A DNA stretch of 64,000 nucleotides from contig JAYENI010000157.1 in the NCBI GenBank assembly GCA_034722015.1, positions 11 through 64,010 on the forward strand, read 5' to 3'. Numbering within the stretch: position 1 is the first letter of the stretch; every line of letters begins with the position of its first letter. Shown in pieces: positions 963-63,636 of the stretch. The notes beneath the pieces are model-generated. The model saw only the letters and a list, made by a program, of their open reading frames with translations, was not told the origin of the DNA and did no database searches. The position numbers were made by a program, and so were the translations under genes. This DNA is from Pseudomonadota bacterium. Lineage in GTDB: Bacteria; Pseudomonadota; Gammaproteobacteria; JAJDOJ01.

Positions 963-968
963 TTCGTT

Positions 969-16612: not shown

Positions 16613-16615
16613 GTG

Positions 16616-16656
16616 TCGAGCACCACGGCTGAAACCTGCGACGCCGCGGTGCTCGG
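16616..16656. terminator. GC-rich hairpin between convergent TerB-like and HU genes (possible bidirectional terminator)
   Basis: TCGAGCACCACGG...CCGCGGTGCTCG, a 12-bp stem with one mismatch. No clear U-tract on either strand. Confidence 0.3.
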
Positions 16657-17076: not shown

Positions 17077-17240
17077 TTAGGCGATTGCCGGAAAATAATG
17101 TACCGGATCACGCCGGATTTTCGTTCGTCTTCAAGGCGCGGTAACAGGCGCATCGTCGAACGATGCAACCGTTGCCACAACGCCGAAGACAGGCGAAAAG
17201 ACAAGTGAGGTGGTACATAATTTGACAGAAATCTCCTTAA
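17077..17240 (-). repeat. MITE-like TIR element, copy 5
   Basis: TTAGGCGATTGCCGGAAAATAATGTACC...GGTACATAATTTGACAGAAATCTCCTTAA. Confidence 0.85.
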
Positions 17241-19287: not shown

Positions 19288-19377
19288 CTGGGCATGTTGG
19301 ACTGCGCCACCGGATTGAGTTCGCGAAGGCGGCAATTCTACTTCGTATTGCGCACGGGCGACACATTCGATCTGGAA

Positions 19378-19540
19378 TAAGGCGATTTCTGTCAATTGAC
19401 ATACCATCTTGCTTGTCTTTTCGTCCGTCCTCTGTGTTACGACAATAGTTGCATCGTTCGACGATGCGCCTGTTGTCGCGCCTTGATGACGAACGAAAAG
19501 CCGGCGCGATCCGGTATGTCATTTTCCGGCAATCGCCTAA
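19378..19540 (+). repeat. MITE-like TIR element, copy 6
   Basis: TAAGGCGATTTCTGTCAATTGACATACC...GGTATGTCATTTTCCGGCAATCGCCTAA. Confidence 0.85.
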
Positions 19541-20286: not shown

Positions 20287-20472
20287 GTCCACGGGCTCGT
20301 TCAAACACGGATGGCGACGCGGCGTCGCGTCCCGCCAAATCACAAAAACAATACTATCCTTTATTGAGCAGTCAGGGCGTGAATGCCGGAGGTCCCCGCC
20401 GGGGAGACGGTCCCGGCGCCGCGCGCATGCCTGAATAGATCCCAGGACCATCGCATCCCGAACGACGAGACT

Positions 20473-21507: not shown

Positions 21508-21560
21508 GCGGCACCGGACCCCGTGCCCATCGAATTTGCGTGCAAGCGAGGTAACGAGAT

Positions 21561-22727
21561 ATGGATCGAGACAAGGCAATAGGTTTCATGCACGATCTTC
21601 TCAAGACGCTGATCGGCAGGAACGGTTCGGATATGTTCATCACCGTCGGTGCGCCGCCTTCCATCAAGGTCGATGGAAAGATGACGCCGATTACCAACCA
21701 GGCACTCACGCCGACCCATACCCAGGTCCTGGTGCGCGCGATCATGAACGACAAGCAGGCGCGTGAATTCGACGAGAAGCAGGAGTGTAATTTCGCCATC
21801 AACATGCCCGGCGTCTCGCGCTTCCGCGTCAGTGCGCTCACCCAGCAGGGAAACGCGGGTATGGTGATTCGTGTGATCACCAGCGAGATTCCCGAGTTCG
21901 AGGATCTCAGCCTGCCGAAGATCCTGCGCGACATCGCCATGACCGGGCGTGGCCTGGTGATCTTCGTCGGCGGCACGGGTTCCGGCAAGTCCACTTCCCT
22001 GGCCGCGATGATCGGGTACCGCAACGAGCACAGCTACGGCCACATCATCACCATCGAGGACCCGGTGGAGTATGTGCATCCGCACCGGAACTGCCTGATC
22101 ACCCAGCGGGAGGTTGGCGTCGATACGGAAAGCTACGAGATCGCGCTCAAGAACACCCTGCGACAGGCCCCCGACGTCATTCTGATCGGGGAGATCCGGG
22201 ATCGTGAGACCATGGAGCACGCCGTGGCCTTCGCCGAGACGGGCCACCTCTGCCTTTCCACCCTGCATGCGAACAGCACCAACCAGGCGCTGGACCGGAT
22301 CATCAATTTCTTTCCCGAGGAGCGACGCTCGCAGCTGCTGATGGACCTGTCGCTGAATCTCAAGGCGGTCATCTCGCAGCGCCTGCTTCCGAAGGCCGGC
22401 AGCGAGGGGCGGGTCCCCGCCGTGGAGGTCATGATCAACACGCCGCTGATGTCGGACCTGATCTTCAAGGGCGAAGTGCACGAGATGAAGAGCCTGATCA
22501 AGAAATCCACCGAGCAGGGCATGCAGACCTTCGACCAGCACCTGTTCCAGCTGCTGGAAGAGGGCAAGATCACCTACGAAGACGCCTTGCGCAATGCGGA
22601 CTCGGTCAACGACCTGCGGTTGCGCATCAAGCTCGAGGGGACGTTGTCCAGGCAGGCGGCGCCGGGTGACGCGGCGCTTGGCGGGCTGGAGATGGAGGCC
22701 AAGGCGGAGGAGTCAGGTTTGATCTAG
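21561..22727 (+). CDS. pilU: twitching motility ATPase PilU
   Basis: PilT-family ATPase immediately downstream of pilT. Walker A GGTGSGKST. Has the longer C-terminus typical of PilU. Confidence 0.85.
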   Translation: MDRDKAIGFMHDLLKTLIGRNGSDMFITVGAPPSIKVDGKMTPITNQALTPTHTQVLVRAIMNDKQAREFDEKQECNFAINMPGVSRFRVSALTQQGNAGMVIRVITSEIPEFEDLSLPKILRDIAMTGRGLVIFVGGTGSGKSTSLAAMIGYRNEHSYGHIITIEDPVEYVHPHRNCLITQREVGVDTESYEIALKNTLRQAPDVILIGEIRDRETMEHAVAFAETGHLCLSTLHANSTNQALDRIINFFPEERRSQLLMDLSLNLKAVISQRLLPKAGSEGRVPAVEVMINTPLMSDLIFKGEVHEMKSLIKKSTEQGMQTFDQHLFQLLEEGKITYEDALRNADSVNDLRLRIKLEGTLSRQAAPGDAALGGLEMEAKAEESGLI

Positions 22728-22928
22728 CGGATTTCAATGGTCTGCCGGATGCGCCCGTCTGTCGGCCCGCGGCAGTGGGCATCAGTGAACTTGGGGCTAA
22801 ACCACATACGACCGCAGGTTTGTACCGGAATGCGCACAAGATTGTTGCCGAGGCAGTCACGCGTTACCCGGCGAACTGCCACAAGGGGTGGCGCGAGATG
22901 ACAGGGGCCAGTCCCATTGCGAAGTATC

Positions 22929-23092
22929 TAAGGCGATTACCGGAAAATGACATATCAGATTGCGCCGGATTTTCGTTCGTCATCAAGGCGCGACAACAGG
23001 CACATCGTCGAACGATGGAACGGTTGTCGCAACACAGGAGACGGACGAAAAGACAAACAGGATGGTATGTCAATTGACAGAAATCGCCTAAG
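22929..23092 (-). repeat. MITE-like TIR element, copy 7 (between pilU and the third pilT paralogue)
   Basis: TAAGGCGATTACCGGAAAATGACATATC...GGTATGTCAATTGACAGAAATCGCCTAA. Ends 12 nt before the pilT-paralogue ATG, and the terminal TAAGGA is positioned like an SD. Confidence 0.85.
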
Positions 23093-23104
23093 GAACCCAG
23101 TGCC

Positions 23105-24406
23105 ATGAATATTGCTCCCTATCTCAAACTGATGTCGGACAAGAATGCTTCCGACCTGTTCTTCACGACCGGGGCCCCGGCAAGCGTCAAGCTGGAGGGG
23201 GAGATGCGCCCGGTCAGCCGGAGTGCGCTGGATCCCGGCGTGACGCGGGAGATCGCCTACAGTCTGATGGACGAGGCGCAGATCCACGAGTTCGAGAACA
23301 CCAAGGAGATGAACCTGGGTCTCAGCATCGCCGGAGTGGGCCGATTTCGCGTCAACATTTACCGCCAGCGAGGAGAGGTGTCGCTCGTCATCCGGTTTAT
23401 CAAGTCAATCATCCCCTCGCTGGAGGATCTCTCCCTGCCGCCGGTGCTCAAGGACCTCGTGGGGCACAAGAACGGGTTGATCATCGTGGTTGGTTCGACC
23501 GGCTCCGGCAAGTCCACGACGCTGGCGTCCATGCTCGATTTTCGAAACGCCAACCAGGCGGGCCACATACTGACGATCGAGGACCCGATCGAATATGTGT
23601 TCGCACACAAGAAATCGATCATCGGACAGCGCGAAGTCGGTCTGGACACCCTCTCGTACGACAACGCGCTGCGCGAGGCCATGCGAGAGGCACCGGACCT
23701 GATCATGATCGGGGAGGTGCGTGATCGCAAGACCATGGAGGCGGCAATTTCCTACGCCGACACGGGCCACCTCTGCATGACGACGCTGCACGCCGTCAAC
23801 GCCAATCAGGCGCTCGACAGGGTCATCAACCTGTTTCCGTCGGACGCCAGGCAGCAGATCCTCATGGACCTGTCGCTGAATCTTCGCGGCATCGTCTCAC
23901 AGCGTCTCGTCGTGGGGATGGACGGCAAGCGGGTCCCGGCCGTAGAGGTGCTGGTCAACACCCCCTACAGCTCCGAGCTCATCAAGAAGGGAGAGATAGG
24001 GGCATTGAAAGAGATCATGGAAAAGGGCTCGGTCAACGGCATGCAGACATTCGACCAGTCGCTGCTCGAGCTTTACCAGATGAAACGCATCAATCTCCAG
24101 GCGGCGCTGGGCAATGCGGACTCCAGGGGGGATCTCGAATGGCGTATCAATTTCGGGGGGGGCAAGGACAGCTTCGAGGATTCGGTCGAATCGCTCCAGT
24201 TTCCGGACGACGTCGTCGAGCAGTCGGGCAAGGCGTCGGGTGATGTCGACCCGCACGCGGCGATGGAAAGTGAGGACGATGTGCCCGACCAGGCCATGGA
24301 CACCCTCTCGATGATGCGAAACGCCTTCGGCGAGGAAGATGAAGATGAAGACGAAGACGACGCATCCGAGGAGGGAGACGAAGACAACCTGAATGTCAGA
24401 TCCTGA
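23105..24406 (+). CDS. third PilT/PilU-family retraction ATPase paralogue with acidic C-terminal tail
   Basis: Walker A GSTGSGKST, His box and PilT N-domain are present. Unique ~90-aa C-terminal extension ending EEDEDEDEDDASEEGDEDNLNVRS. Confidence 0.8.
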   Translation: MNIAPYLKLMSDKNASDLFFTTGAPASVKLEGEMRPVSRSALDPGVTREIAYSLMDEAQIHEFENTKEMNLGLSIAGVGRFRVNIYRQRGEVSLVIRFIKSIIPSLEDLSLPPVLKDLVGHKNGLIIVVGSTGSGKSTTLASMLDFRNANQAGHILTIEDPIEYVFAHKKSIIGQREVGLDTLSYDNALREAMREAPDLIMIGEVRDRKTMEAAISYADTGHLCMTTLHAVNANQALDRVINLFPSDARQQILMDLSLNLRGIVSQRLVVGMDGKRVPAVEVLVNTPYSSELIKKGEIGALKEIMEKGSVNGMQTFDQSLLELYQMKRINLQAALGNADSRGDLEWRINFGGGKDSFEDSVESLQFPDDVVEQSGKASGDVDPHAAMESEDDVPDQAMDTLSMMRNAFGEEDEDEDEDDASEEGDEDNLNVRS

Positions 24407-28749: not shown

Positions 28750-28912
28750 TAAGGCGATTGCCGGAAAATGACATACCAGATTGCGCCGGATTATCGTTCA
28801 TCATCAAGGCGCGACATCAGGCGCATCGTCGAACGATGTAACTGTTGTCGCGACACAGAGGACGGACGAAAAGACAAACAAGATGGTATGTCAATTGACA
28901 GAAATCGCCTAA
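28750..28912 (-). repeat. MITE-like TIR element, copy 8 (between ruvX and algH)
   Basis: TAAGGCGATTGCCGGAAAATGACATACC...GGTATGTCAATTGACAGAAATCGCCTAA. Confidence 0.85.
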
Positions 28913-35668: not shown

Positions 35669-38600
35669 ATGAAAGCAAGCCACAGTGTCGAAGGCAACAA
35701 GCTGAGTTGGGTCAAGAAGGAGCTCGACGAGCTCCTCAAGGATGCCAGGCTGGCGCTGCAGGACTACATCGAGGAGGACCACGACGTTTACCAGCTCGAT
35801 GAGGTGGTTGCGTTGCTCAGGCAGGCCGGCGGCACGCTGCAGATGGTCGAGGTCAAGGGTGCCGCGATATTGTCGCGGGAGATGGTGGATCTCACCATCG
35901 CGCTCAAGGAAGGCAAGGTTGAGCAGCGGGACGAGGCGTTCGAGCAGCTGTTGAGTTCCGTAATGAAGCTGCAGGACTATCTCGATCACGTCGAGGCGGG
36001 GAATCGGGACGTGCCGGCGGTATTGCTGCCGCTATTGAATGATATGAGGAGCGCTCGCGGCGCCGACCCGATGACCGGGAAGGTCCTGTTCTTTCCCGAG
36101 CTTGGCGACATTGATCCGGATATCGATACCGGAACGATCGGAGACATCCAGGCCGACTTTCCGGCATTGCGGCAAACCTTTCAGGTGGGTCTTCTGGGCT
36201 GGTTTCGGGGAGACGACGCCAAGGGAAACCTGGCCAGAATGCTCACCGTCACGGCAAGGCTCTACCGGGATGCAGAGACTCCGGCGGCCAGGCGACTGTG
36301 GGCGGCAAGCAGTGCGCTGACCGAGGCGCTGGCGATGGAAGGCCTCGAAGCGGGTGTGACGGTCAAGAATCTCCTCGGGCGTGTGGACCGCGAGATCAGG
36401 GAGTTGATCGATGTCGGTGAGGCGGGTGTCGACGATGCACTGCGTGAGGATCTGATCAAGAATCTACTCTATTACGTTGCACAGGCCGACGAGCGGGGTC
36501 GTTTTGTATCCGCGGTAAAAGCACAGTTTTCCCTGAGTCAGGTCCTGCCCGATGAGCAGGAGCTGGAAAAGGTGAGGGAGCGACTGTCTGGCCCAGGGGC
36601 CGAGGTCCTGGCCGCGGTGTCGGACGCCGTACGCGAGGACCTGGCCGAGGTAAAGGACAACCTCGAGATCTTTTTTGCCCAGGGGCAGAAAAACACCGGT
36701 GACCTCGACGCGGTCATCATGCGGCTTCACCGTATTGCCGACACGCTGGGCATGCTCGGCTTGGGCACTGCCCGCGAAAAGGTCATGAACCAGGCGGATA
36801 TCGTCAACCAGATCGTCAGCGGTGAAAGCGGTTCGAGCGAAATTGCGATCATGAATATGGCGACCGTGGTCATCAATGTCGAAAGCGCGCTCGACGATTT
36901 CGTGTCGTTTCGATCGCCGCAGGACGAGGCGGCCGGCGACGTTTTCAGTACCGGCGTGCTGCCCCCGGCCGAGGTGCTCAAACTTCGCGAGACACTTGTC
37001 GGCGAGGTGCTCCACGACATCGAAACGATCAAGGATTCGATCATCGAGTATACGTCCGCGCCTGATCAGAAAGAGCGCCTGGGTGCCGTGCCGGTGACGT
37101 TGGACAATCTCTCCGGCGCGCTCGTCGTGGCAAATGCGCAGGCGGTGGCGCCATTGCTAAAATCCATTCGCGACTATGTCAGCGAGCGGATACTCGAAGG
37201 CGGTGAGACGCCGGATCCGCTGGCTCTGGAACACCTCGCCGATGCGGTTTCCAGCGCCGAGTATTACATTGAGTCCCTGAAAAACCAGGGTCGAAGCATT
37301 GACGCAATACTCGAGCCCGGAGAGTCGGGCATGGCACGGCTCGGGTATCCGGTCCAGGCGGTCCCGCTTTCGAACCAGGAAGTGGAGGAGGCGCCATCGG
37401 TCCTGGATCTCCCGTACGACTCGACCGGGACGTTCGGTGACGTTGTGGCGCTGGAGGACGAGGTCAAGAAGACGGTTGTACCGTTGACTCCCCAGGAGTC
37501 CGCTTCAGAAGAAATGCTCGTGGTTGCGACCGACACGGGTGTTGGCGACACCAAGGCGAGCGGTGCCCCGGGAGATGAGTATCGTGATCTCGTCGTGCTC
37601 GAAAAAGGCGCAGACGACGAGATTCTGGAGATCTTCCTCGAAGAGGCCGACGAGGTCGTGGGGCAGGTCGTCGAATTGTTTCCTGAGTGGCGCCGTGACA
37701 CGGACGACGACGAGACCCTGGTGACTATTCGGCGCATGTTCCACACGCTGAAAGGCAGTGGCCGAATGGTCGGCGCCGGAGTCATCGCAGAGTTCTCCTG
37801 GGCTTACGAGAACCTGATAAATCGTGTGCTCGACAATACGGTTGCTCCGGGTCCGGAGCTGATGGAAGCGATGACCAGTGCGGTAGACATGCTTCCGCAG
37901 TTGGTAGAACAGATCAAGGGGGAAGGTGAACCGGACAAGGACGTGTTCTTCATGATGGCTGTAGCCCATGCGCTGAGCAAACCGGGAACGCCTGTGCCCG
38001 AGCAGGAACCCGCCGGGGAAGTGGCGGGGAGGGGGCCCGAGGGTCCTGCGGAAGCGGAGGAGGCCTGGGAGGCGTTGAAGGAAGTGTTCGGTGGGGACGT
38101 CGGCGAGGTGAAGACGGAAGTCAGCGAGCCGGCTGCCGAAGAAGGCGAAGAGCCGGTCGAACGTAAAGCCAAGGATAAGGCGAAGGCCAAGGGCAAACTC
38201 AAAGGCAAGGCCAAAGCGAAAGCCAAACCCAAAGGCAAGGCCAAGGCCAAGGCTAAAGCCAGCCCCGTTGTCGATGAGACGCCTCAACCTGCAGATCGGG
38301 TTGTTGAGGTGGATCTCCAGCCATTCGCCGAGCCTCCAATTCTGGAAAGGCCGGAACCCGAAGTTGTGTCCGGCGCGGAAGAAGTGGAGTTGCCGCTGGT
38401 AGCTGAGGGCGGGTTCGACCCCGAGTTGCTGGAGATATTCCTGACGGAGGCCACTCAGCACCAGCGCGATTTCGATTCCCTGATCCAGGCGAGCGTCAAG
38501 CAACGGGCGAGACTGCCCTTGAGTGACGAGTTGCTGCGAGCGGTGCATACCCTCAATGGCAGCGCCAGGACCACTGGCGTCCCCGCGATACATGAACTGT

Positions 38601-41600
38601 GCAGTCCTCTTGAGGCATACCTGCAATCGAGGAAGCAAAAATTCGCTACCGTAGGGGAGCCTGCCTTTGAAACGGTAGAGGCCGTCGCCACAGAAATTGG
38701 CAGGGTGCTGGGCGTACTCAGGGACGCTCCGGCCAACGTTTCCGTCGACGGGGAACTGCGCGCGCGTATCGACACGATGGCCGAGGAGATGATTCGGTCC
38801 GTAGAAGGCGCGGCGGCGCCAGTGGAAGATGCGGCGGTGGCCCTGCCGGAACCCCCGGTTGTGACGGAGTGCGTGATGCCCGCTGCGACGCTTCCGGGAA
38901 CACCGGACATGCCGGGCGAACAGGACCAGGAACTGGCTGAGCTGTTTCTGGAGGAGGCGACCGACGTCATGGAGGTCGGAGACCGTGCCCTGCAGGCGTG
39001 GTCGGAAAATGCCGACGATCGGGAAGCGGTCACCGAACTGCAGCGTCAGCTGCACACACTCAAGGGTGGGGCGCGCATGGTGGGCTACCCGAAGAGTATC
39101 GGTGACCTGAGCCATGCCCTGGAGTCCATGATTGTCGAGGTTGCCGACGGTCGTTTATCGGGCGGTCGGGAAATGTTCGACATGATGCACCGGTCCTTTG
39201 ATCGCATCAGTGACATGCTCGACCACGCACGGCAGGGGCAACCGGTCTATGCAGACGCCGCGCTGATCGCGGAGATTGCCGGTTTGCGAGGAGAAACCGA
39301 ACCCGCCGAAGCGCAGGGTCCATTACCCGATATGCCGGGCGAACAGGACCAGGAACTGGCGGAGTTGTTTCTGGAGGAGGCGACCGACCTCATGGAGGTC
39401 GGGGACCGCGCCCTGCAGGCGTGGTCGGAGAAGACCGATGATCGCGAAGCGGTCACCGAACTGCAGCGTCAACTGCACACGCTCAAGGGCGGGGCGCGCA
39501 TGGTGGGCTACCCGAAGAGCATCGGTGACCTGAGTCATGCCCTGGAGTCCATGATTGTCGAGGTTGCCGAGGGGCGCCTGTCGGGGAATTCCGACATGTT
39601 CGGTTTGTTGCGCCGGGCATTCGACGGCATCAGTGACATGCTCGACCAGGCGAGGCAGGGGAATCCGGTCTACCCGGCCGTCGGGATACTGGAGGAAATC
39701 GCGCGCCTCCGCGGGGAAGAGCCGGTATTCGAACCGGCGCCGGTACAGCAAGGGCCTGAAGTTCAGGAGGCGCCGCCGGTTGCGGGAACGCCAAGGTCTC
39801 CGCAGCCTTCGGCGCCTCAGGAAGTCATTCGCGTCAAGTCGGACCTGCTGGACAATCTGGTAAACAACGCCGGCGAGGTCAATATTTACCACTCGCGGCT
39901 CGAGCAACAGATATCGTCTTTCGGTTTCAATCTCTGGGAGCTCGAACAAACAGTAGAGCGATTGCGAAAGCAACTGCGCCAGATGGATATCGAGACCGAA
40001 ACGCAAATTCTGTATCGCTACGATCAGGATCCGCAAAAGCCAGGACATGAGGCGGATTTTGATCCCCTGGAACTTGACCGATACTCGACCCTGCAGCAGC
40101 TGTCACGATCACTGGGCGAGAGTGTCAATGACCTGATCAGCATCAAGGATATGTTGAGGGACGTCGTCCGAGACTCCGAGACGCTGCTTCTGCAGCAATC
40201 CAGGGTCAGTACGGATCTGCAGGAAGGATTGATGCGGACCCGAATGGTTCAGTTCGCGGGTCTTGCGCCGCGCTTGCGCCGTGTCGCCCGGCAGACCGCG
40301 CACGAACTGGGGAAAAAGGTCGACGTTCATATCATGGGCGAGACCAACGAACTTGACCGGTCCGTCCTGGACAGGATGGTGGCGCCGCTGGAGCACATGA
40401 TCCGGAATTCAATCTCACATGGACTGGAAATCCCGGAGAAACGCAGAAAGGCCGGTAAACCGGAAACCGGTAACGTACGGATCAGTGTTGACCGGGATGG
40501 CGCCGAGATTGTCGTTCGGGTAGCGGATGACGGTGGTGGCATCGACCTGGAGGCCGTGCGTGCCAAGGCATACAAGCAGGGTCTGATTGGTGACAGCGAC
40601 AAGCTGTCCAATCACGATGTCATGCAGCTAATCCTGGAGTCCGGATTCAGCACGGCGGGTGAAGTCACCCAGATCGCGGGACGCGGTGTCGGCATGGATG
40701 TCGTCGTTAGCGAAATCAAGCAGTTGAACGGTACCCTGACCATTGACTCCACACGCGGTGTCGGTACGGTATTCACTGTGCGGCTGCCCTTCACCCTGGC
40801 GATCAACCAGGCCCTGCTGGTTCAGTTGGGTGAAGACGTGTTTGCCGTCCCGCTGACGAGTATCGAGGGTATCGTGAGAATCAGCGCCGAGGACCTCGGT
40901 GATCGGTACGAGCAGGAAGGCGCCATATATGAGTACGCCGGCAATGCCTATGAACTGAAGTATCTAGGGACGGTGCTTGGATTGCATCAACCCGATCTGA
41001 GTGACCCTTCGAGGATGTATCCCGTGCTTCTGGTCAGATCAGGTGATTTCCGGGCCGGTTTGCAGGTGGACGGCCTGATCGGCAACCGCGAGGTCGTCGT
41101 GAAATCGCTTGGTCCCCAGGTCAGCAAGGCCAGGGGGATATCCGGCGCAACGATTCTCGGTGACGGGCGCGTTGTGCTGATTCTCGATGTCGCCGGCCTG
41201 GTACGCGTCGGGGCGGGGGTCAAGTTCGACTATATTTCCGACAGGCCGCCGGTCGTTTCGGAGGTGCAGACGATCATGGTGATCGACGACTCCATCACCA
41301 TTCGCAAGGTTACCTCGCGAATGCTCGAGCGCAATAACTTCGCCGTAATGACGGCGAAAGACGGCGTCGACGCGGTGAGTCAACTGCAGGAGCAGAAGCC
41401 TGATCTCATGCTGATGGATATCGAGATGCCGCGCATGGATGGTTACGAACTTGCGACGCACGTTCGTAACAACCCGGATCTGAAGGATATCCCGATTATC
41501 ATGATCACGTCGCGAACAGGCCAGAAACACAGACAGAGGGCGGAGAACATCGGTGTCAACAAGTATCTGGGCAAACCCTATCAGGAGAGCGACCTGCTTG

Positions 41601-41623
41601 GATCCATCAAGGAGCTGCTCTAG
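35669..41623 (+). CDS. chpA: multi-Hpt hybrid histidine kinase ChpA (CheA-like with C-terminal receiver)
   Basis: 1984 aa. At least four Hpt motifs (HTLKGS/GGARMVG). CheA dimerisation and HATPase domains (RNSISHGLE, GRGVGMDVV), a CheW-like domain, and a terminal receiver (VIDDSITIRK...DIEMPRMDGYEL). Confidence 0.85.
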   Translation: MKASHSVEGNKLSWVKKELDELLKDARLALQDYIEEDHDVYQLDEVVALLRQAGGTLQMVEVKGAAILSREMVDLTIALKEGKVEQRDEAFEQLLSSVMKLQDYLDHVEAGNRDVPAVLLPLLNDMRSARGADPMTGKVLFFPELGDIDPDIDTGTIGDIQADFPALRQTFQVGLLGWFRGDDAKGNLARMLTVTARLYRDAETPAARRLWAASSALTEALAMEGLEAGVTVKNLLGRVDREIRELIDVGEAGVDDALREDLIKNLLYYVAQADERGRFVSAVKAQFSLSQVLPDEQELEKVRERLSGPGAEVLAAVSDAVREDLAEVKDNLEIFFAQGQKNTGDLDAVIMRLHRIADTLGMLGLGTAREKVMNQADIVNQIVSGESGSSEIAIMNMATVVINVESALDDFVSFRSPQDEAAGDVFSTGVLPPAEVLKLRETLVGEVLHDIETIKDSIIEYTSAPDQKERLGAVPVTLDNLSGALVVANAQAVAPLLKSIRDYVSERILEGGETPDPLALEHLADAVSSAEYYIESLKNQGRSIDAILEPGESGMARLGYPVQAVPLSNQEVEEAPSVLDLPYDSTGTFGDVVALEDEVKKTVVPLTPQESASEEMLVVATDTGVGDTKASGAPGDEYRDLVVLEKGADDEILEIFLEEADEVVGQVVELFPEWRRDTDDDETLVTIRRMFHTLKGSGRMVGAGVIAEFSWAYENLINRVLDNTVAPGPELMEAMTSAVDMLPQLVEQIKGEGEPDKDVFFMMAVAHALSKPGTPVPEQEPAGEVAGRGPEGPAEAEEAWEALKEVFGGDVGEVKTEVSEPAAEEGEEPVERKAKDKAKAKGKLKGKAKAKAKPKGKAKAKAKASPVVDETPQPADRVVEVDLQPFAEPPILERPEPEVVSGAEEVELPLVAEGGFDPELLEIFLTEATQHQRDFDSLIQASVKQRARLPLSDELLRAVHTLNGSARTTGVPAIHELCSPLEAYLQSRKQKFATVGEPAFETVEAVATEIGRVLGVLRDAPANVSVDGELRARIDTMAEEMIRSVEGAAAPVEDAAVALPEPPVVTECVMPAATLPGTPDMPGEQDQELAELFLEEATDVMEVGDRALQAWSENADDREAVTELQRQLHTLKGGARMVGYPKSIGDLSHALESMIVEVADGRLSGGREMFDMMHRSFDRISDMLDHARQGQPVYADAALIAEIAGLRGETEPAEAQGPLPDMPGEQDQELAELFLEEATDLMEVGDRALQAWSEKTDDREAVTELQRQLHTLKGGARMVGYPKSIGDLSHALESMIVEVAEGRLSGNSDMFGLLRRAFDGISDMLDQARQGNPVYPAVGILEEIARLRGEEPVFEPAPVQQGPEVQEAPPVAGTPRSPQPSAPQEVIRVKSDLLDNLVNNAGEVNIYHSRLEQQISSFGFNLWELEQTVERLRKQLRQMDIETETQILYRYDQDPQKPGHEADFDPLELDRYSTLQQLSRSLGESVNDLISIKDMLRDVVRDSETLLLQQSRVSTDLQEGLMRTRMVQFAGLAPRLRRVARQTAHELGKKVDVHIMGETNELDRSVLDRMVAPLEHMIRNSISHGLEIPEKRRKAGKPETGNVRISVDRDGAEIVVRVADDGGGIDLEAVRAKAYKQGLIGDSDKLSNHDVMQLILESGFSTAGEVTQIAGRGVGMDVVVSEIKQLNGTLTIDSTRGVGTVFTVRLPFTLAINQALLVQLGEDVFAVPLTSIEGIVRISAEDLGDRYEQEGAIYEYAGNAYELKYLGTVLGLHQPDLSDPSRMYPVLLVRSGDFRAGLQVDGLIGNREVVVKSLGPQVSKARGISGATILGDGRVVLILDVAGLVRVGAGVKFDYISDRPPVVSEVQTIMVIDDSITIRKVTSRMLERNNFAVMTAKDGVDAVSQLQEQKPDLMLMDIEMPRMDGYELATHVRNNPDLKDIPIIMITSRTGQKHRQRAENIGVNKYLGKPYQESDLLGSIKELL
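38909..39754 (+). repeat. intragenic tandem duplication, 2 x 423 bp (141 codons), inside chpA
   Basis: The units start at 38909 and 39332 with ATGCCGGGCGAACAGGACCAGGAACTGGC. They are near-identical over ~300 bp (through GTCGAGGTTGCCGA) and then diverge. Each unit encodes one Hpt domain (LQRQLHTLKGGARMVGYPKSIGDLSHALESMIVEVA). Confidence 0.8.
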
Positions 41624-42224: not shown

Positions 42225-42387
42225 TAAGGCGATTTCTGTCAAATGACATACCATCCTGCTTGTCTTTTCGTCCGTCCCCTGTGTTGCGACAACCGTTCCA
42301 TCGTTCGACTATGCAACTGTTCTCGCGCCTTGAAGGCGAACGAAAATCCGGCGCAATCTGGTACGTCATTTTCCGGCAATCGCCTAA
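42225..42387 (+). repeat. MITE-like TIR element, copy 9 (between chpC and rsmE)
   Basis: TAAGGCGATTTCTGTCAAATGACATACC...GGTACGTCATTTTCCGGCAATCGCCTAA. Confidence 0.85.
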
Positions 42388-57240: not shown

Positions 57241-57648
57241 ATGGCATCAAGCGACTGGTTCCTGGAAAAATTTCCCTGCCCCTGTTGCGGTTACCTCGTG
57301 TTTGACGCGCAACCGGGAAGCCATGCGCACTGCCCGATTTGCTGCTGGGAGGACGATCTTGCGCAGCTGCGCTTTCCCCTGATGAACGGAAGCGCCAATG
57401 TCGTGTCCCTGGAAACTGCGCAGAGGAACTTCGCCGAGTTCGGCGCATCGGAGCGCAGAAAGCGGGCCATGGGTCGAGAACCTTTCGAAATGGAGCGCAG
57501 AGAGGGTGATTGGCGCCTGCTCGATCCGGTTCAGGACAATATCGAGGAGCCTCGAAGGGGTATCGACTATTCAGACTCGTATCCCGAGGCGAATACCACC
57601 GTACTGTATTACTGGCGAGTGACCTACTGGCGCAGGTTGAACAGCTAA
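57241..57648 (+). CDS. cysteine-rich CPCC-family hypothetical protein
   Basis: FPCPCCGYLVF...CPICCWEDD motif pair. The TAA stop equals the first 3 nt of repeat copy 10. Confidence 0.5.
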   Translation: MASSDWFLEKFPCPCCGYLVFDAQPGSHAHCPICCWEDDLAQLRFPLMNGSANVVSLETAQRNFAEFGASERRKRAMGREPFEMERREGDWRLLDPVQDNIEEPRRGIDYSDSYPEANTTVLYYWRVTYWRRLNS

Positions 57649-57808
57649 GGCGATTTCTGTCAAATAACATACCAGCCTGCTTGTCTTGTCGTCCATCTTC
57701 GGCGTTGCGGCAACAGTTGCATAGAGCGACTATGCGCCCGTTGCCGCGCCTTGAAGACGAACGAAAATCCTGCGCAATCTGGTATGTTATTTTCCGGCAG
57801 TCGCCTAA
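57646..57808 (+). repeat. MITE-like TIR element, copy 10 (exactly fills the gap between convergent CPCC gene and bioD)
   Basis: TAAGGCGATTTCTGTCAAATAACATACC...GGTATGTTATTTTCCGGCAGTCGCCTAA. Both flanking stop codons lie in the termini. Confidence 0.85.
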
Positions 57809-58509
57809 CCTTGAGCCGGACGGCGCGTCACGAGGTCAGCGAGATCCTCGACCCAAACACTGCTGCTGTCCGGTGCCCCAAGGCGTTCGCTACAAAGAAC
57901 CGGACAGTCCAGGTAACGCCTGAGGTCAGCTGCGTTGTCCATTGCGGAGTCTACCGGCGCCTCGATCCGGTTCAGCAACACCGCGCACAATGTCAGTTTG
58001 TGTTTGGCGATTGCCGCGGCGCTGAGCAGGGTGTGGTTGATGCAACCCAGCCGGTCGGCCACCACAAGTAACACAGGCAGGTCGAGTGCTTCGGCGAGAT
58101 CGGCATTGAGGGCGTCACGGGTCAACGGGGAATAGAACCCTCCTGCACCTTCCACCAGGGTAAATTCTTCGGTTTCGATCCGGCAGGCCTCGATAACGTC
58201 GGAAAGCGAGACATTGACTCCGGCCTGTTCCGCAGCCCTTGCCGGCGATACGGGTTGTGGAAGGCGCCAGCGACACACGACGTCGAGCGCTGTTCCGCCA
58301 GGGACCGCGGCGGCCAGGATCCCCGCGTCCGTCAGCCTGTCGTCACCGAACTCCCAACCCGACTCGAGCGGTTTGCGTGGGGCAACGCGCAGCCCCCGGC
58401 GGGCGAGTGCAGGGATCAGTCGTGCGCCGGCCCAGGTCTTGCCGACACCCGTGTCGGTGCCGGTGATGAAAATCCCTGGCGCGTTCCATTCCGAAATTGT
58501 GTGCTTCAT
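57805..58509 (-). CDS. bioD: ATP-dependent dethiobiotin synthetase BioD
   Basis: P-loop GIFITGTDTGVGKT, ~230 aa. The TAG stop lies in the other terminus of repeat copy 10. Confidence 0.75.
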   Translation of the reverse strand: MKHTISEWNAPGIFITGTDTGVGKTWAGARLIPALARRGLRVAPRKPLESGWEFGDDRLTDAGILAAAVPGGTALDVVCRWRLPQPVSPARAAEQAGVNVSLSDVIEACRIETEEFTLVEGAGGFYSPLTRDALNADLAEALDLPVLLVVADRLGCINHTLLSAAAIAKHKLTLCAVLLNRIEAPVDSAMDNAADLRRYLDCPVLCSERLGAPDSSSVWVEDLADLVTRRPAQG

Positions 58510-58649
58510 GTTTCCCGCGTCTTCAGTGGAATCCGCCTCGATCGCGATGGCGTATGCCAATCCAGATTCCAAACCGTGACGTAGTGCCGCGTAACGGGAT
58601 GCTCCCTCCGACGCGTCGTTCGCCATGGTGAGTTCCGTCCCGGGGCGGT

Positions 58650-60968
58650 ATGATCGTCGCTGGCCAGACACGCGGACAAAAACTCGTGATCGACAAATAC
58701 GCCCGATTCCTGATTCGTTGGCGGTACCTCGTTATTGTCGCCACGCTGGCTGTGGTGGCTGTTCTGGCCAGCGGCGGGCGGTTCCTCCAGTTCACAAACG
58801 ATTACCGCGTCTTTTTCGGTGAGAGCAATCCGCAGCTCGAGGCGTTCGAGAACCTGCAGGACAGCTACACCAAGAACGACAATGTCCTGATCATGCTGTT
58901 GCCGTCCGACGGTGACGTCTTCTCGGGCGACACCCTCGAGGCAATCAAGGAACTCACGACCCGCGCCTGGCAGATCCCCTTTTCGATTCGGGTCGATTCC
59001 ATCGCCAATTTCCAGCATACCTCGGCGGACGGGGACGACCTGCTGGTCGAGGATCTCGTCGACGAGGTGGATGGGCTCTCCGATCAAGACCGGGAGACGA
59101 TCCGCGAAATCGCGCTCAGGGAACCGATACTGGTCAACCGCCTGGTCTCCCCCGACAGTCGTGCCGCGGCGGTCAACGTCACCGTCGAGCTGCCGGGGGT
59201 CGATCCGACCAACGAGGTCCCCGAGGTCGTGGCGTACGCGCGCTCGATCGTCGCCGATTTCGAGGCCCGTTACCCCGATATCGCGTTTCACGTCAGCGGT
59301 GTCGTGATGATGAACAACGCCTTCCCCGAGGCGAGCAAGGCCGACATGAGCCTGCTGGTTCCCCTCGCATTCGTGGTGATCGTCGTAAGCCTCGTCCTGT
59401 TCCTTCGCAATATCCCCGCAGCGATAGCCACGGTCATCGTCGTCATCTTATCCATCCTGGCGGCGATGGGGACCACGGGTTGGCTCGGCATCAAGCTCAC
59501 GCCCCCATCCGCCAGCGCTCCGACACTGATTCTCACCCTGGCGGTGGCCGACTGTGTCCATTTCCTGACGACATTCCTTCATTCGATGCGCGCCGGCGCG
59601 CAGCGCCACGACGCCGTTATCGAGAGTCTGCGAGTCAATTTTCATCCGATCTTTCTCACCTCTCTCACCACGATAATCGGTTTCCTGAGCCTGAATTTCA
59701 GTGACTCTCCACCGTTCCATGATCTCGGAAACATCACCGCGATCGGCGTCGCCTACGCCTTCGTACTCAGCGTGTTGTTTCTGCCTGCCTTCGTCGCGGT
59801 GCTTCCGGTCAGGGCGCGACGGGAGCCGGGTCTCGGCGGGGGCATGATGGGCCCACTGGCCGAGTTCGTGATTCGAAGGCGGCGCGCCCTGCTGATCGTG
59901 ATGGGTGTGATTTCCATCGCGTTGATCGCGCAGATCCCCCGCAATGAACTGAACGACGTTTTCGTCGAGTATTTCGATACCTCGATCGATTTCCGCAACG
60001 ATACCGACATGGTCACCGAACACCTGACCGGGCTCTACTTTATCGACTACTCGCTCGACAGCAAGGAGTCCGGCGGCATCAGCCGACCCGAATTCCTCGA
60101 GGCCGTCAAGCGCTTCACATTGTGGTTGCGTTCGCAGCCGGAGGTGATACACGTCAGTGCAATCACGGACATCTTCGAGCGGCTCAACAAGAACATGCAC
60201 GCCGACGACGAGGCGTGGTACCGCCTGCCGGAGCAGCGCGACCTCGCGGCCCAGTACCTGCTGCTGTACGAGATGTCACTGCCCTACGGGTTGGACCTGA
60301 ACAACCAGATCGACGTGGACAAGGCCAGCACGCGCCTGTCGGTCAGCATGCATACGATCTCAACGCGCGGCGTGATCGAATTCGAGTCACGAGCGAAGGA
60401 CTGGATGCAGGCCAACACACCGGATCTTGTCACCCAGGGCGCCAGTCCGACCGTGATGTTTTCCCACATCGGCGCACGGAATATTCGCAGCATGCTGTGG
60501 GGAACCACACTGGCGCTGGTGCTGATCTCACTGGTCCTCATCTTTGCGCTGCGGTCGCTGAAACTCGGGCTGATCAGTCTGGTGCCGAATCTGCTGCCCG
60601 CGGGCATTGCCTTCGGGATCTGGGGGATCTTTGTCGGCGAGATCGGTCTCGCCCTTTCGGTCGTGATGGGGATGACCCTGGGCATCGTGGTGGACGACAC
60701 GGTACATTTCCTCAGCAAGTATCTCAGGGCGAGGAGAGAACGGGGTTGCAACGCGGAGGACGCGGTGCGCTATGCGTTCTCCAGCGTAGGCATTGCGCTG
60801 TGGGTCACGACCGTGGTGCTGGTGGCCGGATTCCTGGTGTTGTCGCTGTCGGCCTTCGAACTCAATGCCGGGATGGGGCTGCTCACCGCCGTGACGATCA
60901 CAATCGCCCTGATCGTGGATTTCCTTCTGTTACCGCCCCTGTTGATGATCTTCAAGGAGGTCGCGTGA
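58650..60968 (+). CDS. RND-superfamily exporter (MMPL/COG1033-type, 12 TM with two large loops)
   Basis: 772 aa with duplicated 6-TM bundles and a sterol-sensing-like/MMPL topology. Confidence 0.7.
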   Translation: MIVAGQTRGQKLVIDKYARFLIRWRYLVIVATLAVVAVLASGGRFLQFTNDYRVFFGESNPQLEAFENLQDSYTKNDNVLIMLLPSDGDVFSGDTLEAIKELTTRAWQIPFSIRVDSIANFQHTSADGDDLLVEDLVDEVDGLSDQDRETIREIALREPILVNRLVSPDSRAAAVNVTVELPGVDPTNEVPEVVAYARSIVADFEARYPDIAFHVSGVVMMNNAFPEASKADMSLLVPLAFVVIVVSLVLFLRNIPAAIATVIVVILSILAAMGTTGWLGIKLTPPSASAPTLILTLAVADCVHFLTTFLHSMRAGAQRHDAVIESLRVNFHPIFLTSLTTIIGFLSLNFSDSPPFHDLGNITAIGVAYAFVLSVLFLPAFVAVLPVRARREPGLGGGMMGPLAEFVIRRRRALLIVMGVISIALIAQIPRNELNDVFVEYFDTSIDFRNDTDMVTEHLTGLYFIDYSLDSKESGGISRPEFLEAVKRFTLWLRSQPEVIHVSAITDIFERLNKNMHADDEAWYRLPEQRDLAAQYLLLYEMSLPYGLDLNNQIDVDKASTRLSVSMHTISTRGVIEFESRAKDWMQANTPDLVTQGASPTVMFSHIGARNIRSMLWGTTLALVLISLVLIFALRSLKLGLISLVPNLLPAGIAFGIWGIFVGEIGLALSVVMGMTLGIVVDDTVHFLSKYLRARRERGCNAEDAVRYAFSSVGIALWVTTVVLVAGFLVLSLSAFELNAGMGLLTAVTITIALIVDFLLLPPLLMIFKEVA

Positions 60969-61744
60969 TGAGACTCGCATGCGTGATGTTGATTCTGATG
61001 TCCCTGCCCGCAATGGCGGAAACCCCGGAAGAGAAGGGGCTCGCCATCGCGGTTGCCGCCGACGAGCGCGACGCGGGTTTCGGCGACTTCACCGCCGACA
61101 TGGTGATGACCCTCAAGAACCGCAAGGGCAAGACCAGCGTCAGGAACCTGAGGGTGAAGACCCTCGAGGTCCAGGGCGACGGGGACAGGAGCCTTTCCGT
61201 TTTCGATCGGCCGAGGGACGTCAAGAACACGGTGATGCTCACCTACGCACACGGACTCGAACCTGACGACCAATGGCTGTACCTGCCCGCGGTCAAGCGG
61301 GTCAAGCGCATCCACTCGAAGAACAAGTCAGGGCCGTTCATGGGCAGCGAGTTCGCCTTCGAGGACCTGGGGTCGCAGGAGGTCGAGAAGTACACCTACA
61401 AGTATCTGCGTGACGAGCCGTGCGCAGACGGGTGGCAGTGTTATGTCGTGGAGCGCTTTCCCGCCTACGAGCATTCCGGCTACACCCGGCAGGTGGGCTG
61501 GATCGACAAGGACGAGTACCGGCCCGTCAAGACCGAGTTCTACGATCGCAAAAACTCCCTGCTCAAGACCCTGGAGATGTCGGGATACCAGGAATACATC
61601 GGTCGCTACTGGCGACCCGACATCATGTCCATGCAGAACCACCAGACGGCGAAGTCCACACTGCTCGAATGGCAGGATTATCAGTTCGGGACCGGGCTTG
61701 GCGACCGGGACTTCAATCCGAACTCCCTGAGCCGGATGCGTTGA
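60968..61744 (+). CDS. LolA-like outer-membrane lipoprotein-sorting family protein (DUF1329-like)
   Basis: Signal peptide MRLACVMLILMSLPAMA. 1-nt overlap with the RND gene. The track ORF 60122..61744 is an upstream read-through in GC-rich DNA. Confidence 0.55.
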   Translation: MRLACVMLILMSLPAMAETPEEKGLAIAVAADERDAGFGDFTADMVMTLKNRKGKTSVRNLRVKTLEVQGDGDRSLSVFDRPRDVKNTVMLTYAHGLEPDDQWLYLPAVKRVKRIHSKNKSGPFMGSEFAFEDLGSQEVEKYTYKYLRDEPCADGWQCYVVERFPAYEHSGYTRQVGWIDKDEYRPVKTEFYDRKNSLLKTLEMSGYQEYIGRYWRPDIMSMQNHQTAKSTLLEWQDYQFGTGLGDRDFNPNSLSRMR

Positions 61745-61875
61745 CCCGCTCCGGGCCGTACACGGGGTGGACCGGGGGCCGCGGAATCCGTTCATGCCCC
61801 GGCGGCACCCGGCCGGTGGCTATGTTTCCCGGGAAGTTCGCGCGCGGAGGCCCGGCGGAGCGACGTCCGCAGTGG

Positions 61876-62038
61876 TAAAGCGATTACCGGAAAATGACAT
61901 ACCAGATTTTGCCGGATTTTCGGTCGTCATCAAGGCGCGACAACAGGCGCATCGTCGATCGATGGAACGGTTGTCGCAACACAAAGGACGGACGAAAAGA
62001 CAAGCAAGATGGTATGTCATTTGACAGAAATCGCCTAA
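61876..62038 (-). repeat. MITE-like TIR element, copy 11
   Basis: TAAAGCGATTACCGGAAAATGACATACC...GGTATGTCATTTGACAGAAATCGCCTAA. Contains in-frame ATGs continuous with the downstream DUF1302-like ORF. Confidence 0.85.
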
Positions 62039-63636
62039 GTCCGGGTCTGTTCAGCGGGATTGCCCTGAAGGACAGGCTGTCTGCGTCACCGTTAGGCGAT
62101 TGCCGGAAAATCGCCTTAGGGCTCCTGTTTGTCCTTGCGCTGTTCATGTCCCCTGCGGCCCGCGCGGGGATGGTCGACGAAGACACCTGGCTGGTGAAAG
62201 CGGGCGACACGGTGGAATCCGTATCGCGCGACTTCTATCCCGACGATCCGCAGATGGCGCTGCGGATGCAGCGCGAACTGGTCACCGGTAATCCGCAGAT
62301 CTTTCTCGACGTCGACGAGCCGTCCAGGCTGAACCCCGGGGACCGTCTGACGATACCGACATTTGCCTCCGGTCGCGCCAAAGAGCTCTTCGAGGCAGGG
62401 CTGCCCGAATCGGAACGGGACACCGACACCCTGGCGCCGGCTGCGCCTGTGGCCGCTTCGGAGGATCCCGACGTGGAGACCGGGGCCGCTGTCCCCTTTA
62501 TCTTCAGCGGCGAATGGTCCGGCAGTATCACGCCGGAGATCCAGTACTTCTGGGAGACCCCGAAGGCCGGTCCCGACTACAGCGTGGATCTCTCCCTGGC
62601 ATTTCAGCCGGAGTATTACCTGAGCTGGAAGAATGGCAATCAGGCGTTCAACTTCGTGCCGTTCTTCCGGATCGACCAGCGCGATTCCAACCGGACGCAC
62701 TTCGACGTTCGTGAACTCAGCTGGCTTGCGGTCAGTGGCGACTTCGAGTTCCTGTTCGGGGTCAGCAAGGTCTTCTGGGGGGTGACCGAGTTCGTCCACC
62801 TGGTGGATATCATCAACCAGACCGATGCGGTCGAGAACATCGACGGGGAGGAAAAGCTCGGCCAGCCCATGGCCCGGCTGATCTGGCTGCAGGACTGGGG
62901 ATCGCTTCAATTTTTCGTGCTGCCCTATTTTCGCGAGCGGACCTTCCCGGGGCCGGATGCGAGGCTGCGTACGGTGATACCCGTCGATACCGGCCAGACG
63001 CAGTTCGAGTCGGGGGCGAAGAACTGGCACGTGGATTTCGCCGTCCGCGGTACGACCATTCTGGGTCCGGTCGATGCCGCCCTGTCGCAGTTCGTCGGGA
63101 CCAGCCGCGATCCCGAATTTCTCCCCGGAGCGAACGCTGCCGGCCAGCCCGTGCTGATCCCGCGTTACAACCAGATGGCGCAGACAGGGCTGGAACTCCA
63201 GTCCATCCTCGGTGACTGGTTGTGGAAGTTCGAGGGGATCTACCAGAACAATCCGGTGGAGGATTTTTTCGCGGCCGTTGGGGGGTTCGAATACACGCTG
63301 GTCGGCATCTTCAGTTCCGCGATCGATCTCGGCATCGTCAGTGAGTACACTTACGATGGCCGCACGGAACGTCTCGTCTCGCCCTTCGACAACGATGTGT
63401 TTGTCGGAATGCGCCTGGCCTTCAACGACACGCAGAGTACGGAGATCCTGGCCGGCGGGTCCATCGACCTGACAACGGTCGCACGCACCTTCCGGGTTGA
63501 GGCCAGCCGGCGGTTCGGAGACAGCTGGAAGCTCGATCTCGAACTGCAGATCTTCGACAACGTCAGCGAGAAAGACCCGCTTTTCGGTCTGCAGGACGAC
63601 GATTTCGTGCGTCTGGATTTCGGCTATTTCTTCTGA
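62011..63636 (+). CDS. putative outer-membrane beta-barrel protein (DUF1302-like) with LysM-like N-domain
   Basis: Hydrophobic signal-like segment IALGLLFVLALFMSPAARA, then WLVKAGDTVESVSRDFY (LysM-like), then alternating aromatic beta-strand pattern and C-terminal FGYFF. The start is uncertain: the only in-frame ATGs upstream of the hydrophobic segment (62011, 61894) lie inside repeat copy 11. Confidence 0.5.
   Translation, partial: GMSFDRNRLSPGLFSGIALKDRLSASPLGDCRKIALGLLFVLALFMSPAARAGMVDEDTWLVKAGDTVESVSRDFYPDDPQMALRMQRELVTGNPQIFLDVDEPSRLNPGDRLTIPTFASGRAKELFEAGLPESERDTDTLAPAAPVAASEDPDVETGAAVPFIFSGEWSGSITPEIQYFWETPKAGPDYSVDLSLAFQPEYYLSWKNGNQAFNFVPFFRIDQRDSNRTHFDVRELSWLAVSGDFEFLFGVSKVFWGVTEFVHLVDIINQTDAVENIDGEEKLGQPMARLIWLQDWGSLQFFVLPYFRERTFPGPDARLRTVIPVDTGQTQFESGAKNWHVDFAVRGTTILGPVDAALSQFVGTSRDPEFLPGANAAGQPVLIPRYNQMAQTGLELQSILGDWLWKFEGIYQNNPVEDFFAAVGGFEYTLVGIFSSAIDLGIVSEYTYDGRTERLVSPFDNDVFVGMRLAFNDTQSTEILAGGSIDLTTVARTFRVEASRRFGDSWKLDLELQIFDNVSEKDPLFGLQDDDFVRLDFGYFF
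62092..62118. repeat. 27-bp TIR-only mini-copy (abutted termini, no internal region)
   Basis: TTAGGCGATTGCCGGAAAATCGCCTTA, i.e. left TIR fused to right TIR. It lies 53 bp after copy 11 and inside the 5' region of the DUF1302-like ORF. Confidence 0.6.

Follow-up and report, generated by a model that had tools for sequence, protein, structure and literature searches.

A 157-nt palindromic repeat with a three-base target duplication that sometimes abuts stop codons in uncultured Gammaproteobacteria

The described elements closest to the repeat presented here are the PIF/Harbinger elements and the Tourist MITEs, characterised by 3-bp TTA/TAA duplications and IS5-like transposases (PMC2213677), as well as IS5 itself, which duplicates a Py-T-A-Pu target (PMC5493358). 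The Correia elements (CREE/NEMIS) of Neisseria are about 100–157 nt long, bounded by ~26-nt TIRs, present in hundreds of copies and mostly intergenic; long hairpins form in their transcripts, and an autonomous partner is not known (PMC2229807). The REP and SPRITE repeats, palindromic and intergenic as well, are placed at 3' ends and between convergent gene pairs (PMC3184786).

The repeat studied here occurs in 11 full copies within the window, i.e. the whole 64-kb stretch of DNA analysed (G+C content 60.8%), accompanied by six remnants; the full copies alone amount to about one per 6 kb, and a 14-mer from the TIR has 16 matches in the window against 0.06 expected. Alignment of the flanked copies delimits a conserved core of 157 nt, GGCGATTTCTGTC...CCGGCAATCGCC, with ends identical across all 11 copies. 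The TIRs are imperfect and 25–28 nt long, the first 25 and the last 25 nt pairing with each other (helix 1 has 21 pairs, with 96% of cells paired), and the whole element is one imperfect palindrome. Length variants range from 60 to 238 nt, none of them encoding a transposase. Scanning the metagenome with the left TIR yielded 120 contigs carrying the repeat, and copies are present in three different MAGs of Gammaproteobacteria, with the labels Pseudomonadota, Chromatiaceae and Candidatus Competibacteraceae; copy 3 of the window and a copy in MAG153 (L006) share 97% identity over 123 nt. Rfam gave 0 matches for the whole window at the gathering threshold, a literature search with the TIR sequence returned an unrelated primer as its sole match, and the proteins of the window organism were matched in the protein collection at no more than 86–92% identity. 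The copies and remnants are as follows:

4277–4433, minus strand: copy 1 core; TSD TGA at 4274–4276 and 4434–4436, the left TGA being the stop codon of the membrane-protein ORF 3674–4276.
10806–10962, plus strand: copy 2 core; the left flank TAA (10803–10805) is the stop codon of the HAD hydrolase gene (10149–10805), the right flank is a degenerate TGG.
11428–11583, minus strand: copy 3 core, 156 nt; flanks CAA and TAA.
12433–12589, plus strand: copy 4 core; TSD TAA/TAA.
17080–17236, minus strand: copy 5 core; TSD TTA/TTA on the plus strand.
19381–19537, plus strand: copy 6 core; TSD TAA/TAA; between yggS and proC, not at a stop codon.
22932–23088, minus strand: copy 7 core; TSD TAA/TAA; between two PilT/PilU-like genes.
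28753–28909, minus strand: copy 8 core; TSD TAA/TAA; 14 nt from the algH stop codon.
42228–42384, plus strand: copy 9 core; TSD TAA/TAA; between the convergent CheW-like gene and rsmE, 20 nt and 7 nt from their stop codons.
57649–57805, plus strand: copy 10 core, 157 nt; left TIR GGCGATTTCTGTCAAATAACATACC, right TIR ending ...GGTATGTTATTTTCCGGCAGTCGCC.
61879–62035, minus strand: copy 11 core; TSD TAA/TAA; the ORF 61420–61878 ending in that TAA is non-coding.
3493–3518, no strand assigned: collapsed copy, TAA + GCCGATGTCTGTCAATCGCC + TAA, 20 nt; both TIR tips are joined at a CAAT microhomology.
62092–62118, no strand assigned: collapsed copy, TTA + GGCGATTGCCGGAAAATCGCC + TTA.
16601–16620, plus strand: TIR remnant GGCGATTTCGTGTCGAG; the TAA in front of it is the stop codon of the TerB gene (16142–16603).
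7773–7787, plus strand: TIR remnant CCGGCAATCGCC, followed by TCA, the complement of the TGA stop codon of the inositol monophosphatase gene (7785–8609, minus strand); between convergent genes.
13610–13625, minus strand: TIR remnant GACAGAAATCGCC followed by TCA.

With the Tourist and PIF/Harbinger elements the repeat shares the 3-bp TTA/TAA TSD, the short, TIR-bounded and non-coding build at high copy number, and a palindromic target with pyrimidine/purine flanks; it differs from Tourist in its bacterial host, in TIRs (GGCGATTTCTGTC...) without the plant G(N)5GTT motif, and in being palindromic over the whole element, not at the ends alone. The IS1031 and IS427 groups of the IS5 family duplicate TNA; the element resembles them in the 3-bp TNA/TWA duplication, in TIRs starting with GG/GA and, presumably, in DDE chemistry, the members of these groups being autonomous and 850–950 bp long, with none bearing the ends of this MITE in the collections searched. 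Several bacterial MITEs (Correia, ERIC) duplicate TA, and the Correia elements additionally possess promoter elements and an IHF site and serve as substrates of RNase III. Correia elements and this element are alike in size, TIR length, mostly intergenic position, long hairpin and the absence of a known partner, whereas their sequences are unrelated and the TSD is TA in the former and 3 bp in the latter. Concerning REP/BIME and SPRITE, the likeness lies in a palindromic, intergenic nature and a bias to convergent gene ends; assignment to REP/BIME was rejected, however, since REPs are units of 20–40 nt moved by RAYT without any duplication, in contrast to a unit of 157 nt with a 3-bp duplication, and SPRITE has a Rho-independent terminator motif, whereas this element lacks a U-tract.

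The flanks define the element boundaries. Nine of the 11 window copies have identical 3-nt flanks (TAA/TAA in seven, TTA/TTA in one, TGA/TGA in one), those of copy 2 (TAA/TGG) and copy 3 (CAA/TAA) being degenerate. Among the 97 paired metagenome elements with both flanks available, 79 have identical 3-nt flanks—TTA in 41, TAA in 37 and TGA in 1, in element orientation—while flanks of 1, 2, 4, 5 or 6 nt match in 0 of the 97; the TGA target of copy 1 is thus rare, having one counterpart among these 79 other perfect duplications. The three flanking bases differ from copy to copy yet agree within a copy, and only the 3-nt length fits; therefore, TAA and CTA at copy 10 are not termini of the element, TAA being the duplicated 3-bp host target. 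The initial annotation, which had taken the stop triplets for the termini of the repeat, is to be corrected in this respect: 57646–57648 and 57806–57808 are the duplicated target and the core covers 57649–57805. Based on 88 reconstructed sites, the target consensus is Y-TWA-R, with C/T at position -1 in 90% and A/G at position +1 in 82%, and the target is any such site, not gene ends as such. As regards the proposal that the element targets TA/TAA at gene ends and duplicates TA, what stands is a duplicated target that contains TA; the duplication is a 3-bp TWA (rarely TGA), and the preference is for Y-TWA-R instead of gene ends. The TAA triplet lies on the G-rich strand in nine of ten window insertions (P = 0.012), an asymmetry taken as chance, the ratio in the metagenome loci being 44:34 and the window signal thus not reproduced.

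Several gene ends named in the initial annotation do coincide with the repeat. The TGA (4274–4276) of the membrane-protein gene and the TAA (10803–10805) of the HAD hydrolase gene, there called yrfG, directly abut the cores of copies 1 and 2, respectively. The TAG (12589–12591) of the HTH-like gene (12589–13113, minus strand) overlaps the end of copy 4, consisting of the last C of its core plus TA; this copy was inserted into a TAA adjoining an older TIR remnant (12417–12429). The TAA (16601–16603) of the TerB-like gene is followed by the TIR remnant GGCGATTTCGTG. Two ORFs ending in a TAA that flanks the repeat were dropped from the stop-codon counts, namely ORF 61420–61878 at copy 11, for its non-coding codon score, and ORF 18775–19380 at copy 6, which has a marginal coding score and no Pfam match and overlaps proC on the opposite strand. 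It may be added that an ORF entering the element at a TAA junction meets TAA immediately and at a TTA junction meets TAG one base in, whereas in the remaining frames reading continues for 6 to 54 codons, so that stopping translation is not what the element is built for.

Copy 10 lies between convergent genes, both confirmed by Pfam, in agreement with the original reading:

57241–57648, plus strand: gene of a CPCC-family cysteine-rich protein; Pfam PF14206 (Cys_rich_CPCC), E = 6e-28.
57646–57648, plus strand: left TAA of the copy 10 TSD, doubling as the CPCC stop codon.
57806–57808, plus strand: right TAA of the copy 10 TSD; the last C of the core (57805) and the TA of this triplet form CTA (57805–57807), the complement of the bioD stop codon TAG on the minus strand.
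57805–58671, minus strand: bioD-like gene (dethiobiotin synthase, AAA_26); Pfam PF13500, E = 3e-36.

The stretch 57646–57808 thus reads TAA-GGCGATTTCTGTCAAATAACATACC...GGTATGTTATTTTCCGGCAGTCGCC-TAA. The CPCC ORF is open from 57193, its likely start being the ATG at 57241 (homologues have 130–135 aa), and the start of the bioD-like gene probably lies downstream of 58671. In 11 homologues the CPCC C-terminus, ...YWRRLNS*, is retained through its final residue, so the stop codon pre-dates the element and was not created by it.

Related sequences without the element reveal what the insertion sites looked like. The 881-bp ENA contig L001, 79% identical to the window at the nucleotide level and having the order amtB, CPCC and convergent bioD, is empty at the copy 10 site, where it reads ...GAGTAGC-TGA-TCCTCCGG... 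(TGA followed by TCCTCC); its homology to the window is lost at 57646 and found again within bioD. The copy 1 site is empty in the JGI contig L133 (91–95% identical to positions 10–4760 of the window), reading ...TCGGGT TAA GCGTATTCGTGGCAG, and in L134 (78–81% identical), reading ...GCGGAT TGA GCAGG. Both have a single stop codon, which immediately precedes the sequence found in the window after the right TGA of copy 1. The site of the collapsed copy 3493–3518 is likewise empty in L133 (GGGGT-TAA-ATCGCGGA), where a single TAA stands and the remnant is missing. An exact-sequence look-up of the GlnK protein of the window, intended as a route to the copy 10 site of a close relative, gave no match. 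The stop codon thus occupied the precise insertion point beforehand, as the one triplet that was later duplicated, and because L001, L133 and L134 all carry it there, the stop is the target itself. The initial annotation had named empty sites as a comparison to make, with a stop pre-existing a few nucleotides away and lying outside the element boundaries as the contrary outcome; the stop does pre-exist and the boundaries do exclude the TAA, but it is located exactly at the insertion point, not a few nucleotides from it. The presence and absence of the element between relatives, moreover, points to transposition activity.

At copy 10 the comparison also suggests the ancestral arrangement. The bioD product of the window is 7 aa shorter than its L001 orthologue, the gene of the latter running 7 codons further and overlapping CPCC. 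The L001 bioD codon CAG aligns with the TAG of the window; replacing CAG by TAG on the minus strand and TGA by TAA on the plus strand is one and the same substitution. As a single base change accounts for both differences, the pre-insertion site in the window lineage was probably ...AGC-TAA-CC..., in which the CPCC TAA and the bioD TAG (CTA) overlapped by two bases. Duplication of this TAA, combined with a core ending in C, would have recreated C-TA at the right junction, leaving both proteins unchanged and pushing two overlapping stop codons 160 nt apart; the element would therefore fill the newly made gap exactly. The earlier generalisation that the elements exactly fill gaps between convergent genes applies to copy 10 only, copies 2 and 9, also convergent, leaving 6–20 nt.

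Taken as a whole, the coincidence is very probably explained by a MITE that duplicates TWA and lands on TAA or TGA stop codons, so that the stop seems to be a part of the repeat. A DDE transposase acting in trans would make a 3-nt staggered cut at the centre of Y-TWA-R, and after repair the element would have a TWA triplet on either side. Where the target is a stop codon (TAA, occasionally TGA), one triplet would stay in frame, with the protein unchanged and the element starting at the next base; the stop is preserved automatically because the target triplet is duplicated, and no special design is needed. Since the core ends in ...GCC, the opposite-strand junction reads T-TAG-GC, keeping or providing a TAG for an opposing gene in that frame. 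Insertions within genes and in promoter-bearing divergent spacers would then be removed by selection, the copies left being those at 3' ends and in convergent spacers. Of this explanation, the boundaries of the element and its 3-bp TSD, the consensus of the target, the empty sites and the bias in location are shown directly; the staggered cut and the IS5/Harbinger type of the transposase are its presumed components. The imperfect flanks of copies 2 and 3 and the TGA at copy 1 are points against it, as are the fruitless searches for an autonomous partner and the compensatory changes along the hairpin, both described below.

With its 157-nt non-coding core, TIRs, fixed 3-bp TSD, many dispersed copies and presence or absence in relatives, where empty sites hold a single copy of the target, the repeat is a MITE. 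The 3-bp TWA (TNA) duplication inside a Py...Pu palindromic target suggests an element of the IS5/PIF-Harbinger type mobilised by a predicted transposase, the superfamily assignment being made from this target signature alone. An autonomous partner with the same ends was found neither in 727 kb of MITE-bearing metagenome loci nor in the plasmid collection nor in the viral contigs; the plasmid collection had no TIR match and the viral contigs had only chance 15-mer matches. A search of the 120 metagenome loci for TIR pairs separated by 0.7–2 kb and for unpaired TIRs with a neighbouring transposase ORF retrieved only the locus L090, in which a transposase fragment (DDE_Tnp_1/DDE_Tnp_1_6) lies next to a MITE end. 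The insertion sequence of L090 was ruled out as the partner: its 79%-identical relatives in L130 and L132 have GGAGYCTGTCGGATTTA as their terminus and duplicate CTAG, and its own 3' end is truncated about 70 nt short of the GGAGYCTGTCGGATTTA terminus, abutting a solo MITE tip. A tblastn search with L090-type transposases gave no further match in the loci or in the window.

To judge how often stop codons would be hit anyway, a null was built from the window with the elements removed, genes being defined by codon statistics and checked against Pfam, and TWA/TNA sites being kept if their disruption spares coding sequence. Ten of the 90 permissible TWA sites overlap a stop codon (0.11), as against three of nine insertions observed (P = 0.07); for TNA the expectation is 0.15, with four of ten observed (P = 0.05), and weighting the sites by the Y...R flank preference gives an expectation of 0.12 (P = 0.09). 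In the metagenome loci with adequate gene calls, 3 of 14 insertions are at a stop against 0.10 expected, and 5 of 23 against 0.076, a large-sample test that is only indicative because gene calling in the metagenome is poor, just 31 of 83 loci reaching a coding density of 0.7. The stop-codon excess is therefore at most 2–3-fold over target preference plus coding exclusion, weakly above expectation (P about 0.05–0.09). As to the orientation of neighbouring genes, 3 of the 11 copies are situated in convergent spacers, where 6–8% of target sites lie (P = 0.02–0.05), and none of the 11 in divergent spacers, where 22–26% of target sites lie (P = 0.04–0.06). Convergent enrichment with divergent absence is the usual signature of purifying selection on location, and the data support it here.

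The palindrome itself requires separate consideration. Copy 10 folds into a single long hairpin of -74.1 kcal/mol (z = -6.6 versus shuffles), and over 12 copies its 53 pairs are 95% paired. Nine pairs show compensatory changes on both sides, compared with 0–2 when the partners are slid by 1–3 columns, and 67 distinct 157-nt copies contain 96 double-change cells. Transposition alone is no sufficient account of these compensatory changes. Mismatches are symmetrical, with 95 G-T and 99 A-C and hence no strand-specific wobble pattern, so the pairing is not maintained on one transcribed strand. Copies between same-direction genes are mixed in orientation to transcription (3 vs 5), a U-tract after the stem is absent, and a consensus terminator scan found 17 sites versus 13.7 expected, no excess. 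Classification as a terminator repeat of the SPRITE type was rejected on the missing U-tract, the scan and the mixed orientation, and an oriented RNA structure on the mismatch counts together with the orientation; the palindrome is maintained, but an oriented RNA or a terminator is not indicated.

The alternative that survives best, and one that would add to the MITE explanation, is exaptation of the hairpin as a bidirectional terminator, insulator or mRNA 3' stabiliser, its copies being positively retained; on balance we consider it rather unlikely. The very stable fold, the nine compensatory pairs against their slid controls and the double-change cells all speak for it, as do the convergent-spacer enrichment with the 2–3-fold stop-codon excess and the similar placement of REP and SPRITE between convergent genes (PMC3184786), but the missing U-tract, the flat terminator scan, the mixed orientation, the near-equal G-T and A-C counts and the absent Rfam match are all contrary to it, and purifying selection against insertions in promoters and coding sequence predicts the location bias equally well. 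A DNA-level constraint on the palindrome, whether from symmetric binding of the transposase or from correction of one arm by the other in an extruded hairpin, is at least as likely. The more specific idea that the hairpin is under selection, with the copies on stops and between convergent genes working as bidirectional insulators or 3'-end stabilisers, is quite doubtful; if true, an abundant MITE would be part of the gene-end architecture in uncultured sulfur-cycle Gammaproteobacteria. The proposal of the initial annotation, namely that insertions are retained when they restore a stop and bring along a terminator-like hairpin, is accordingly borne out as far as selection on location is concerned, but not for the terminator, and the stop is kept by the duplication.

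Much less probable is a machinery directed to stop codons that senses gene ends—through coupling to translation termination or through 3'-end DNA structure—and not just Y-TWA-R. Four of the 11 copies and at least two remnants in the window do abut stops, and three of its nine TAA-terminated genes abut a copy or a remnant; the flank-weighted null, however, already places 12% at stops, from which the three of nine observed differ at P = 0.09, 8 of 70 insertions (11%) over all metagenome loci are at called stops and about 89% elsewhere, and 7 of the 11 window copies are 7–900 nt from any stop codon, some of them shortly upstream of start codons. Coincidence by chance alone, stop codon and element end being mechanistically unconnected, is similarly improbable: it would suit the weak excess over the null in the window (P = 0.05–0.09), but the duplicated target is a stop triplet in about half of the orientations, which makes the link structural, a stop is one of the few harmless insertion places near a gene, and the empty sites show stop and target to be the same. 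On the MITE explanation the coincidence rate is near expectation, yet each individual coincidence is mechanistically caused. Finally, a Tc1/mariner- or IS630-type element with a 2-bp TA duplication and the third base belonging to the inverted repeat is effectively refuted, and a Stowaway-like derivative is excluded with it, for although TA is contained in both TAA and TTA and is duplicated by Correia and ERIC, this reading demands asymmetric and variable ends (A-GGCG...GCC at TAA sites, GGCG...GCC-T at TTA sites), copy 1 is flanked by TGA/TGA without any TA, 2-nt flanks next to the core match in 0 of 97 elements against 79 of 97 for 3 nt, and the empty sites hold the full triplet once.

The MITE family described here is new, its kind of element is well known, and knowledge of how MITEs work is unchanged; palindromic repeats positioned where convergent genes end are likewise already documented, in the form of REP and SPRITE (PMC3184786). 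What the family offers is a clean bacterial case of a Tourist-like (TWA-duplicating) MITE. In practical terms, ORF finders extend starts and ends into the elements—as with the proC start at 19407, the start at 61894 and the false ORF 61420–61878—and repeat finders are liable to mis-set element boundaries by 3 nt. The abundance of the copies and their spread over several uncultured gammaproteobacterial lineages make the element a useful marker for strain typing and population studies. With regard to the biology of the hosts, a transposon with a stop-triplet target can sit flush with genes, even between overlapping convergent stop codons, neither protein being altered.

The MITE is represented by subfamilies (loci L028, L037, L039, L067, L082, L084, L111 and L124, together with L009 and L041). 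The long subfamily measures 235–238 nt, its right arm carrying an additional 79-nt module, and the short subfamilies, of 60–67 nt, consist of nothing but both TIRs, one such form having been found in a Candidatus Competibacteraceae MAG. The window itself contains two collapsed copies of 20–21 nt, in which nothing is left but the tips of both TIRs:

3493–3518: collapsed MITE copy, TIR tips
62092–62118: collapsed MITE copy, TIR tips

In each copy the two tips meet at a microhomology of 4 nt (CAAT in the first, AAAT in the second), and the 3-nt duplication is retained around both copies. Since the copy at 3493–3518 is missing in L133, a contig from a relative that is 91–95% identical to window 10–4760, it is an earlier insertion that has since lost its palindrome by deletion, and not ancestral sequence.

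A solo TIR tip (CCGGCAATCGCC) occupies 12 of the 14 nt separating the convergent genes for the M90 peptidase and the inositol monophosphatase (window 7768–7787), and the gene of the pair that lies on the minus strand has its TGA stop in the TCA beside it. A solo tip of the window MITE, followed by TAA, is also present in the contig L090, positions 430–2359 of which are nested mobile-element debris: the gene of an IS5-like transposase (423 aa) sits within a second, truncated IS5/IS1182-like IS, and the latter adjoins the tip.

Because some frames stay open for 48–54 codons across the element, several mechanically called ORFs start or end within elements (window 19378–19407, 61894–62038, 11401–11427 and 61420–61878). 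The features concerned are as follows:

19407: start of proC, within an element
61894: ORF start, within an element
10972–11427: ORF with its start within an element
61420–61878: non-coding ORF, terminating in the TAA of copy 11

At the site of copy 10, bioD of the window lacks 7 residues relative to its orthologue (57805–57830 vs 524–548 of L001, a 79% identical contig without this copy). The single base change behind the shortening also replaced TGA by TAA as the stop of CPCC on the opposite strand, so that one mutation affects two overlapping convergent genes.

Concerning other repeats, a 300-nt internal repeat (38902–39624; copies 88% identical, 423 nt apart) lies within a 1984-aa ORF (35669–41623). 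Three paralogous PilT/PilU-like ATPase genes stand side by side at 20383–24406, with copy 7 located between the second and the third.

In nine of the ten TWA insertions of the window, whatever the orientation of the element, the plus strand, which is G-rich over the full length of the window, carries the duplicated triplet as TAA (P = 0.012, given intergenic TAA:TTA of 37:36). This bias did not recur in the metagenome loci (44:34), and it is therefore probably due to chance.

At 12417–12432, a TIR remnant (...GCAATCGCC) immediately adjoins the TAA used by copy 4, and the same layout of a remnant next to TAA occurs in a Chromatiaceae MAG (L007 4058–4075). The duplicated triplet of older copies seems to be the insertion point for new ones, which is consistent with C-TAA-G as the preferred target.
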